The notes: a model not told the origin generated them from the sequence alone. Numbered from the stretch's first letter, positions 32,379 through 33,844 are shown. The stretch is 64,000 bases of DNA from Escherichia coli (GCF_030013595.1 NZ_CP122768.1), one strand, 5' to 3'. Program-made: numbers and translations.

Positions 32379-32396
32379 CCGGATGCGGCGTGAACT
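32379..32396. repeat. left half of a REP palindromic unit (gccggatgcggcgtgaac), split by the IS insertion
   Basis: Joined with 33828-33844 it reconstitutes GCCGGATGCGGCGTGAACGCCTTATCCGGCC, the E. coli REP consensus as I recall it. Confidence 0.85.
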
Positions 32397-32437
32397 GAAC
32401 TGCACCCCAAATGTTGGACATAATCTGACATCTGAAG

Positions 32438-32968
32438 GTGCAGTTTATGAAACATTCATTTGAAGTAAAACTTGCCGCTGTAAATCATTACCTGGCTGGT
32501 CATGCAGGCATCATTTCTACGGCAAAACTCTTTCAACTTTCTCACACCAGCCTCTCACACTGGATTAATCTTTTTCTTCTTCACGGTCCTCGTGCACTGG
32601 ATTGCAGACACAAGCGTAGCTATTCTCCTGAAGATAAACTTTGCGTGGTTCTTTATGCTCTCGGGCATTCTGAGTCTCTACCCCGGGTAGCTGCCCGGTT
32701 TAACATTCCCAGCCACAACACGGTTAAAAACTGGATAAAAGGCTACCGCAAATCTGGTAATGAGGCCTTTATCAGGCGCAGGAAGGAGAAAAGCATGACC
32801 CGTTCTGATGATACCCATGAAAACGAGGCAAACATGACGCCGGAAGAGATGAAGAATGAGCTGCGTTATCTTCGCGCAGAAAATGCATATCTGAAAGCCA
32901 TGCAGGAGCATCTCCTGGAAAAAAAGCGCCAGGAGCTGGAGAAAAAACGAAAGTCATCCGGAGCCTGA
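32438..32968 (+). CDS. IS3-family transposase OrfA (HTH DNA-binding, leucine-zipper region)
   Basis: ORF track 176 aa; C-terminal heptad-like LRYLRAENAYLKAMQEHLLEKK. Confidence 0.85.
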   Translation: MQFMKHSFEVKLAAVNHYLAGHAGIISTAKLFQLSHTSLSHWINLFLLHGPRALDCRHKRSYSPEDKLCVVLYALGHSESLPRVAARFNIPSHNTVKNWIKGYRKSGNEAFIRRRKEKSMTRSDDTHENEANMTPEEMKNELRYLRAENAYLKAMQEHLLEKKRQELEKKRKSSGA

Positions 32969-33795
32969 GGTGCGGACACTGCCAGTCTGACCTGTTAAAG
33001 GCTGCAGGGCTGGCCAGAAGCACGCTGTACTACCAGCTGTCACTGCAGAAGGCTAAGGACAAGTATGCTGATGTGAAACAGCTCATAGCCTCCATCTTCC
33101 ATGAACACCGGGGATGTTATGGGTACCGGCGGATCCATTGTGAGCTTCAGAAAAGAGGTCTTAAGTTCAGTGGCAAAACGGTGCGAAAACTGATGCAACA
33201 GCTCGGCCTGAAGTCTCCTGTGCGCCTGAAGAAATACCGGTCTTACCGGGGAAATATGGGACTCGCTGCAGAAAATATCCTTCAGCGGCAGTTCAAAGCG
33301 GAAGCTCCCTGTGAGAAATGGGTGACAGATATCACCGAATTCAGGGCTGGCGGACAAAAACTGTACCTGTCCCCGATACTTGATTTGTTTAACGGGGAAA
33401 TCGTGGCGTGGGAAACTGCCTGCAGGCCTACAGAGGAGCTGGTGAAGCGGATGTTAAATAAGGGGCTGGAAAGCCTTGCTGAAGGGGAGAAACCGCTGCT
33501 CCACAGTGATCAAGGATGGCATTACCGGATAAAAAGTTATCAGTCCGCCCTGGCGGACAGAGGGTTAGTGCAGAGCATGTCGCGCAAGGGCAACTGCCTT
33601 GATAATGCGGTAATGGAGAACTTCTTTGGTCACCTGAAAGAAGAAATGTACTATCGCCGGGACTACAGAAATGTAGAAGAGCTGGAAAATGCCGTTAACG
33701 AATACATAACTTACTGGAATCAAAAAAGAATAAAACTCAGTCTTGGGGGACTCAGTCCGGTAGAATACCGGACTGAGCATCAAAAAGCCGGTTAA
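32860..33795 (+). CDS. IS3-family transposase OrfB (DDE integrase/RNase H fold); expressed as OrfAB fusion by frameshift
   Basis: ORF track 33073..33795 (240 aa, GTG start); frame open upstream to 32860 overlapping orfA; DDE-type motifs (WVTDITEF..., HSDQGWHY, ...). Confidence 0.85.
   Translation, partial: AALSSRRKCISESHAGASPGKKAPGAGEKTKVIRSLRCGHCQSDLLKAAGLARSTLYYQLSLQKAKDKYADVKQLIASIFHEHRGCYGYRRIHCELQKRGLKFSGKTVRKLMQQLGLKSPVRLKKYRSYRGNMGLAAENILQRQFKAEAPCEKWVTDITEFRAGGQKLYLSPILDLFNGEIVAWETACRPTEELVKRMLNKGLESLAEGEKPLLHSDQGWHYRIKSYQSALADRGLVQSMSRKGNCLDNAVMENFFGHLKEEMYYRRDYRNVEELENAVNEYITYWNQKRIKLSLGGLSPVEYRTEHQKAG
32920..32926 (+). promoter_or_regulatory. programmed -1 ribosomal frameshift site A_AAA_AAG joining orfA to orfB
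   Basis: Heptamer a-aaa-aag in orfA phase at 32920-32926; orfB frame (-1) is open from 32860. Confidence 0.7.
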
Positions 33796-33827
33796 CTGAA
33801 ACTGTCCAGGTTTTGGGGTTCAGTTCA

Positions 33828-33844
33828 GAACGCCTTATCCGGCC
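33828..33844. repeat. right half of the split REP (gaacgccttatccggcc)
   Basis: See 32379-32396. Confidence 0.85.

Follow-up and report, generated by a model that had tools for sequence, protein, structure and literature searches.

The window, i.e., the whole stretch of 64,000 nucleotides of Escherichia coli DNA that was analysed, carries a complete copy of IS1397 between yphA on the left and ypfN on the right. Half of a REP palindrome abuts the element at both ends. The features of the locus, in the order of their coordinates, were the following.

1..32395, + strand: left arm (isc, hca operon, yphA), aligned by blastn to K-12 2,641,432 to 2,673,793
32378..32395, + strand: left half of the yphA/yphB REP, ending in GAAC and contiguous with yphA
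32396..33827, + strand: IS1397 (IS3 family), complete, with TG..CA ends, 1432 bp
32396..32420, + strand: left terminal inverted repeat (IRL), TGAACTGCACCCCAAATGTTGGACA, 21/25 against the reverse-complemented right end
32447..32968, + strand: orfA, 173 aa from ATG, with two HTH_28 domains and a leucine-heptad C-terminus
32447..32926 joined to 32926..33795, + strand: OrfAB fusion, 449 aa
32860..33795, + strand: orfB frame, -1 relative to orfA, with HTH_21 and the rve DDE core
32920..32926, + strand: A_AAA_AAG programmed -1 frameshift heptamer, at offset 2 from the orfA start, which is the phase of -1 slippage
33803..33827, - strand: right terminal inverted repeat (IRR), reverse complement TGAACTGAACCCCAAAACCTGGACA, partner of IRL
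33828..33844, + strand: right half of the ypfH/ypfN REP, beginning with GAAC
33828..63456, - strand: right arm (ypfN, dapE, yffB, acrD, narQ and on to eut), aligned by blastn, from 33844 onwards and in reverse, to K-12 2,592,970 to 2,557,867

Identity and coding content of the element

Compared with RefSeq-annotated IS1397 copies in other genomes, the element was 100% identical across all 1432 bp, which is not a chance match. The matching copies are named 'IS3-like element IS1397 family transposase' by NCBI PGAP in RefSeq. There were 0 mismatches to the copy that lies between yphA and yphB in GCA_900448395.1 and GCA_030346565.1, and identical copies sit at different loci of unrelated strains. 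A match to IS1397 was found in 3,485 of the 5,426 complete E. coli genomes, a full-length copy in 1,707 of the 5,426, and the number of places per genome in this set reached 40. The element was reportedly described by Bachellier, Clement, Wilde, Hofnung and colleagues between 1997 and 2003. Its absence from K-12, pointed out in the earlier note, is in agreement with the literature.

The right end at 33827 had been placed correctly before, while the start at 32397 and the length of 1431 bp had to be changed to 32396 and 1432 bp, since the first T had been missed. The ends are those of an IS3-family element, with imperfect repeats closing in 5'-TG...CA-3' (TGAACTG...CAGTTCA). At the tips, TGAACTGCACCCCAAA and TGAACTGAACCCCAAA agree in 15 of 16 positions, and the agreement is 21/25 when the repeats are extended, in line with the imperfect terminal inverted repeats that the earlier note had described.

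In the orfA product the Pfam domain HTH_28 was recognised twice, at residues 8-57 and 64-113, and M135, L142, L149 and L156 stand in heptad register, which is the leucine-zipper-like C-terminus noticed before. The slippery heptamer was likewise found in orfA phase, as had been stated, and the RefSeq entry for the identical gene is marked 'programmed frameshift', with 2 pieces joined. The predicted fold 3' of the heptamer was no better than the folds of shuffled sequences (z = -1.05, not significant), and therefore no stimulatory structure is claimed. Careful translation of the -1 frame agreed with the earlier reading of an open orfB and an intact element: no stop or frameshift interrupts it between 32860 and the terminal stop at 33793..33795, and the fusion comes to 449 aa. 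Pfam searches with OrfAB returned rve (7e-21), rve_2 (2.5e-20) and HTH_21 (6e-17), together with rve_3, and the score on NCBIfam NF033516 (IS3 family transposase) was 387.2 bits at a cut-off of 160. D295, D355 and E392, together with K398, are candidates for the catalytic residues. Two overlapping reading frames with orfB in -1, a slippery site and a DDE (rve) core make up the layout of the IS3 family. OrfAB is identical to the translations of three IS1397 copies at different loci, the gene being annotated as WP_100190663.1; with the RefSeq naming and the NF033516 score, this identity bears out the assignment to IS1397 that had been made from sequence features.

Judged by its sequence, the element is a standard intact IS1397 of the kind already known, with no difference from known copies in the element itself, and it looks fully transposition-competent. 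Indirect signs of activity are the identical copies at different loci, the up to 40 places per genome and the repeated hits on one REP. The element shares with known copies the length of 1432 bp, the orfA/orfB layout, the A6G -1 frameshifting and a place in the central loop of REPs, where the known copies are flanked by duplications of 3-4 bp. The difference lies in the context only, the window copy being a hybrid of two insertion sites.

REP targeting and the origin of the two flanks

According to passages in PMC1525189 and PMC3184786, which cite J Bacteriol 181:6929 and 183:4395 and NAR 31:4345, the REP specificity of IS1397 has been established experimentally, and its target is the central loop of REPs, i.e., of the palindromic units of BIMEs. 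In the genomes compared here, IS1397 cuts the REP palindrome at its centre at five independent loci (5/5), with a direct repeat of 3-4 bp on each side. These loci, each with the strain in which it was read, were the following.

yphA/yphB, in IAI39
ypfH/ypfN, in EcPF15
ysaA/avtA, in HCP5S3_I2
ygcP/ygcQ, in B19429
yihN/ompL, in SC418

The targeting of REP centres put forward in the earlier note is thus backed by the five loci as well as by the literature. Genuine single-event duplications of IS1397 in other genomes were GAAC, GAA, GTGA, TAAC, TTGA and GTT. Both REPs that concern the window have been struck independently in different strains, the one between yphA and yphB in the registers GAAC, GAA and GTGA, and the one between ypfH and ypfN in the registers GAAC and TAAC. 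Since the same loops were struck independently and in differing registers, individual REPs are recurrent hot spots of IS1397. The REP units at the five loci presumably include both Y-type and Z-type units.

In the window the flanks read GCCGGATGCGGCGTGAAC before the element and GAACGCCTTATCCGGCC after it, and removal of the element with one GAAC restores a perfect REP palindrome. The left half-REP, which we take to be a Y-type palindromic unit, has the same sequence as the corresponding half of the yphA/yphB REP, which is intact in K-12 and HCP5S3_I2. The same yphA-side junction is also present in GCA_030346565.1 and GCA_900448395.1, with yphB on the other side of the element. The right half-REP runs on into CACTCAGCTCAC, which is the 3' end of ypfN, where the yphB side would read ATTTTATAAATTAC; this right flank matches an empty site in HCP5S3_I2 and GCA_030346565.1 and an occupied site in EcPF15. 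In K-12 and HCP5S3_I2 the intact yphA/yphB REP reads ...GCCGGATGCGGCGTGAACGCCTTATCCGGCATTT(T/A)ATAAATTAC and the intact ypfH/ypfN REP ...GCCGGATGTGGCGTGAACGCCTTATCCGGCCACTCAGCTCAC, and by comparison with these the left half in the window is that of the former and the right half that of the latter. The GAAC repeats at the two ends of the element thus derive from two target duplications, one repeat from each, and they are identical because the two REPs are alike in their centre, GTGAACGCC. It is also this identity of the centres by which the hybrid junction mimics a single clean insertion with a GAAC duplication. No second intact copy of the split REP was found elsewhere in the window, and a looser REP-arm pattern gave 5 matches in the window against 0.77 expected.

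Both arms are collinear with the reference genomes, in opposite orientation to each other, and are joined exactly at IS1397. Against HCP5S3_I2, the closest complete relative, the left arm aligned at 1,441,107 to 1,408,713 with 99.94% identity and 0 gaps, and the right arm at 1,506,286 to 1,534,576 with 99.93-99.96% identity and without gaps in the aligned blocks. The distance between the yphA/yphB and ypfH/ypfN sites is 80.8 kb in K-12 and 97.6 kb in HCP5S3_I2. GC skew is about -0.06 on the left arm and climbs to about +0.055 in the far part of the right arm, a change of sign to be expected when the arms are oppositely oriented on the chromosome. When 3.5 kb spanning the element was searched against the 5,426 complete E. 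coli genomes, coverage of the whole query was found in none: hcaD-yphA-IS and IS-ypfN-dapE each had matches, but never in one and the same genome. The yphA-IS junction occurred in 58 of these genomes, IS-ypfN in 6 and the combination in 0. The junction thus sets the window strain apart from all of the more than 5,400 complete genomes. A deletion between direct copies of the element was also considered and is ruled out by the reverse orientation of the right arm, since it would give yphA-IS followed by sequence in the same direction, or ypfN-IS-yphB.

The earlier note had read the structure as a simple insertion into the exact centre of one REP with a 4-bp GAAC target duplication, and the palindrome that returns after removal of the element and one GAAC is what such an insertion would leave behind. 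The restoration of the palindrome holds; its origin from a single REP does not, as the halves belong to two REPs 80.8-97.6 kb apart and in opposite orientation. The intact REPs of the relatives assign each half to its own locus, the sequences past the palindrome come from places 81-98 kb apart, and yphA adjoins ypfN, with or without the element, in 0 of 5,426 complete genomes. A one-REP insertion is ruled out by the mapping of the arms to K-12 and HCP5S3_I2, and we give it practically no credence. The locus is thus a caution that the hybrid of a REP-specific element can be mistaken for one uncomplicated insertion flanked by a regular target duplication. Because near-identical REP loop sequences are duplicated, a recombination hybrid looks like a single insertion, and structural variation of this kind is overlooked unless the flanks of the element are compared with those in relatives.

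Relatives of the window strain and the proposed inversion

The closest complete genomes to the window were HCP5S3_I2 and LCP30S3_I5, and in HCP5S3_I2 both REPs are empty and the order is ancestral. Exact-protein look-ups led to GCA_900448395.1 and GCA_030346565.1, which have zero mismatches to the window over hca-yphA-IS1397 and continue after the element with yphB, in uninverted order and with GAAC/GAAC flanks. In GCA_030346565.1 the ypfH/ypfN REP is empty, and the right arm differs from the window by 1 mismatch in 4,944 bp. The state of these two assemblies indicates that the yphA/yphB copy is ancestral in the lineage and the link to ypfN derived. No relative of the window lineage with IS1397 at the ypfH/ypfN site was found.

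Two other genomes contain IS1397 pairs that are of direct concern here.

GCA_030347985.1, contig JAUAMK010000002.1, about 1,366-1,448 kb: inversion
SK1402 (NZ_AP046545.1), 1,395,020-1,396,368 and 1,469,373-1,470,721: the two IS1397 copies

GCA_030347985.1 and GCA_030346565.1 lie within 29 bp of each other in contig coordinates at yphB, and are therefore regarded as near-clonal. In GCA_030347985.1 an inversion between the yphA/yphB copy and a copy in the yfgD/hda REP is seen with its two reciprocal joints: on one contig the assembly reads yphA-GAAC-IS-GCA-yfgD-bepA-yfgO and, about 73 kb off, hda-GCA-IS-GAAC-yphB. The target duplication of each site is split between the hybrids (GAAC/GCA and GCA/GAAC). 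This inversion resembles the structure in the window in the yphA/yphB copy involved, in its orientation logic and in the position of the partner end in a REP loop; it extends over about 73 kb. It differs in the partner REP and in the duplication there, GCA instead of GAAC, so that the hybrid nature is obvious. No publications on the sibling assemblies were found in a literature search. In SK1402 inverted copies of IS1397 occupy both the yphA/yphB and the ypfH/ypfN site, about 73 kb apart and in normal gene order, with the duplications GTGA and TAAC, respectively. An inverted pair as required for a two-step origin of the window junction therefore exists in nature. SK1402 has no hca operon beside yphA.

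We consider it probable that the IS1397 of the window marks the joint of a recent intra-replichore inversion between the yphA/yphB and ypfH/ypfN REPs, reached by way of two copies; the inversion is read from one joint, yphA-IS-ypfN, the reciprocal joint lying outside the window. On this two-copy route, IS1397 would have entered the yphA/yphB REP loop with duplication of GAAC, a state shown in relatives and kept base for base in GCA_030346565.1 and GCA_900448395.1. A second copy would then have entered the ypfH/ypfN REP loop in opposite orientation, duplicating GAAC again; the natural use of this REP as a target is proven, and exactly this configuration of two copies is found in SK1402. Homologous recombination between the two inverted 1.4-kb copies would finally have flipped the intervening segment, after which each hybrid element would be flanked by half of either REP. 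The reciprocal ypfH-IS-yphB joint should then be met some 48-65 kb leftward of window position 1, in the predicted arrangement ...tmcA-ypfH-(REP half GGCGTGAAC)-IS1397-(GAACGCC REP half)-yphB-yphC..., with its element opposite to the window copy on the chromosome. As no base distinguishes the hybrid copy from the parental one, the crossover point cannot be mapped.

An IS-bounded inversion is in itself an ordinary event and already-known biology. Most large rearrangements in evolving E. coli are due to recombination between IS copies, and when inverted copies recombine the segment between them is inverted and one copy is left at each end (PMC4173774, PMC5009759). The inversions described for IS1 and IS150 in the LTEE and in mutation-accumulation lines are similar to the one proposed here in that inverted copies serve as portable homology, and in that one copy remains at each end with non-matching target duplications as its flanks (PMC4173774, PMC5009759). 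They differ in two respects: the element in the window is REP-specific with both endpoints in REP loops, and its split duplications are identical (GAAC), by which the event is hidden.

The same structure, split target duplications included, is predicted by a one-step transpositional inversion, in which the IRR-IRL junction of the resident yphA/yphB copy, in a tandem dimer or an equivalent form, attacked the ypfH/ypfN REP loop in cis; the second copy and the inversion would then both result from one REP-targeted event. With copy-out-paste-in elements of the IS30/IS911 type such an IR-IR junction with an intramolecular target is known to give deletions or inversions (IS30), and thus the same product in one step (PMC9333248). 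The empty ypfH/ypfN REP in the closest non-inverted relatives fits this reading, as does the different inversion in the near-clonal sibling, which has one end at the same yphA/yphB copy and the other in another REP loop. However, insertion followed by recombination predicts an identical structure, and the two routes are inseparable by sequence, having the same product. Neither a dimer of IS1397 nor a circle junction was observed, and the window itself contains no intermediate of this type; the divergence from HCP5S3_I2 (about 6e-4) allows time for separate events, and the stability of the two-copy intermediate is shown by SK1402. Moreover, the pathway is without demonstration for IS1397 in the literature searched. 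We hold the one-step origin to be unlikely. Two different inversions anchored at one yphA/yphB copy in very closely related genomes, the partner REP of the window's inversion being empty in the nearest uninverted relatives, would fit a recurrent target-specific pathway of this kind, and the wider idea that IS1397 may directly drive REP-to-REP inversions, with the resident yphA/yphB copy attacking nearby REP loops, is put forward as a doubtful one.

The joint could also be an artefact of assembly, if inverted copies as in SK1402 stood in ancestral order and the assembler misthreaded the 1.4-kb repeat. Repeats of the length of an IS are classic sites of mis-joins, the junction occurs in no other genome, a single joint is visible, and the related assembly GCA_030347985.1 has indel errors inside IS1397 that are typical of noisy long reads. 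On the other hand, the sequence of the window continues unbroken across three IS copies, suggesting reads longer than 1.4 kb that would resolve the repeat, and in the sibling a comparable inversion has its two joints together on one contig. An artefact would still need a second IS1397 at the ypfH/ypfN site, which is absent from the nearest relatives. We find this explanation improbable, and the inversion by recombination between two copies remains the preferred one.

Such an inversion would stay inside one replichore and reverse the orientation of some 81-98 kb to replication, the isc, hca, gua and pur genes among them. Together with the inversion in the sibling, it would make IS1397 copies in REPs live substrates of rearrangement in this lineage. 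If the direct route were true, recurrent REP-to-REP inversion would be a pathway not described for IS1397, with REPs as preferred endpoints.

Other features of the window

Two identical IS4-family elements, resembling IS10, lie in inverted orientation at 56911..58239 and 63457..64000, and are named 'IS4-like element ISVsa5 family transposase' in RefSeq; the transposase of 402 aa scored 404 bits on NF033591. The first copy is inserted within eutJ with a 9-bp target duplication, the second lies within eutB and runs past the end of the window. The pair encloses 5,217 bp (eutJ'-eutG-eutH-eutA-eutB') in a composite-transposon-like manner, and the eut operon is broken. HCP5S3_I2 has neither copy. 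The chimeric EutJ::IS10 protein had no record in an exact-protein look-up, and the same truncated EutB was met only in short-read drafts, namely GCA_036246605.1, GCA_008326365.1 and GCA_021649405.1, the contigs of which end at IS copies. The cryptic prophage CPZ-55, which lies between eutA and eutB in K-12, is absent at 62632..62644, where eutA directly adjoins eutB as in HCP5S3_I2.

A tandem duplication of about 680 bp was found at 11925..13006 in the ryfA/timP-sseB region, with 300-nt copies that are 92% alike and a 64-nt pair; in HCP5S3_I2 the toxin gene timP is annotated twice in this region, beside a partial sseB. Finally, a 58-nt repeat containing CCCCTCGCCCCTCTGGGGAGAGGGTTAGGGTGAGGGG occurs at 45104..45161 and 59835..59892, the two copies being 93% alike, and presumably belongs with the boxC family of intergenic repeats, which it resembles.
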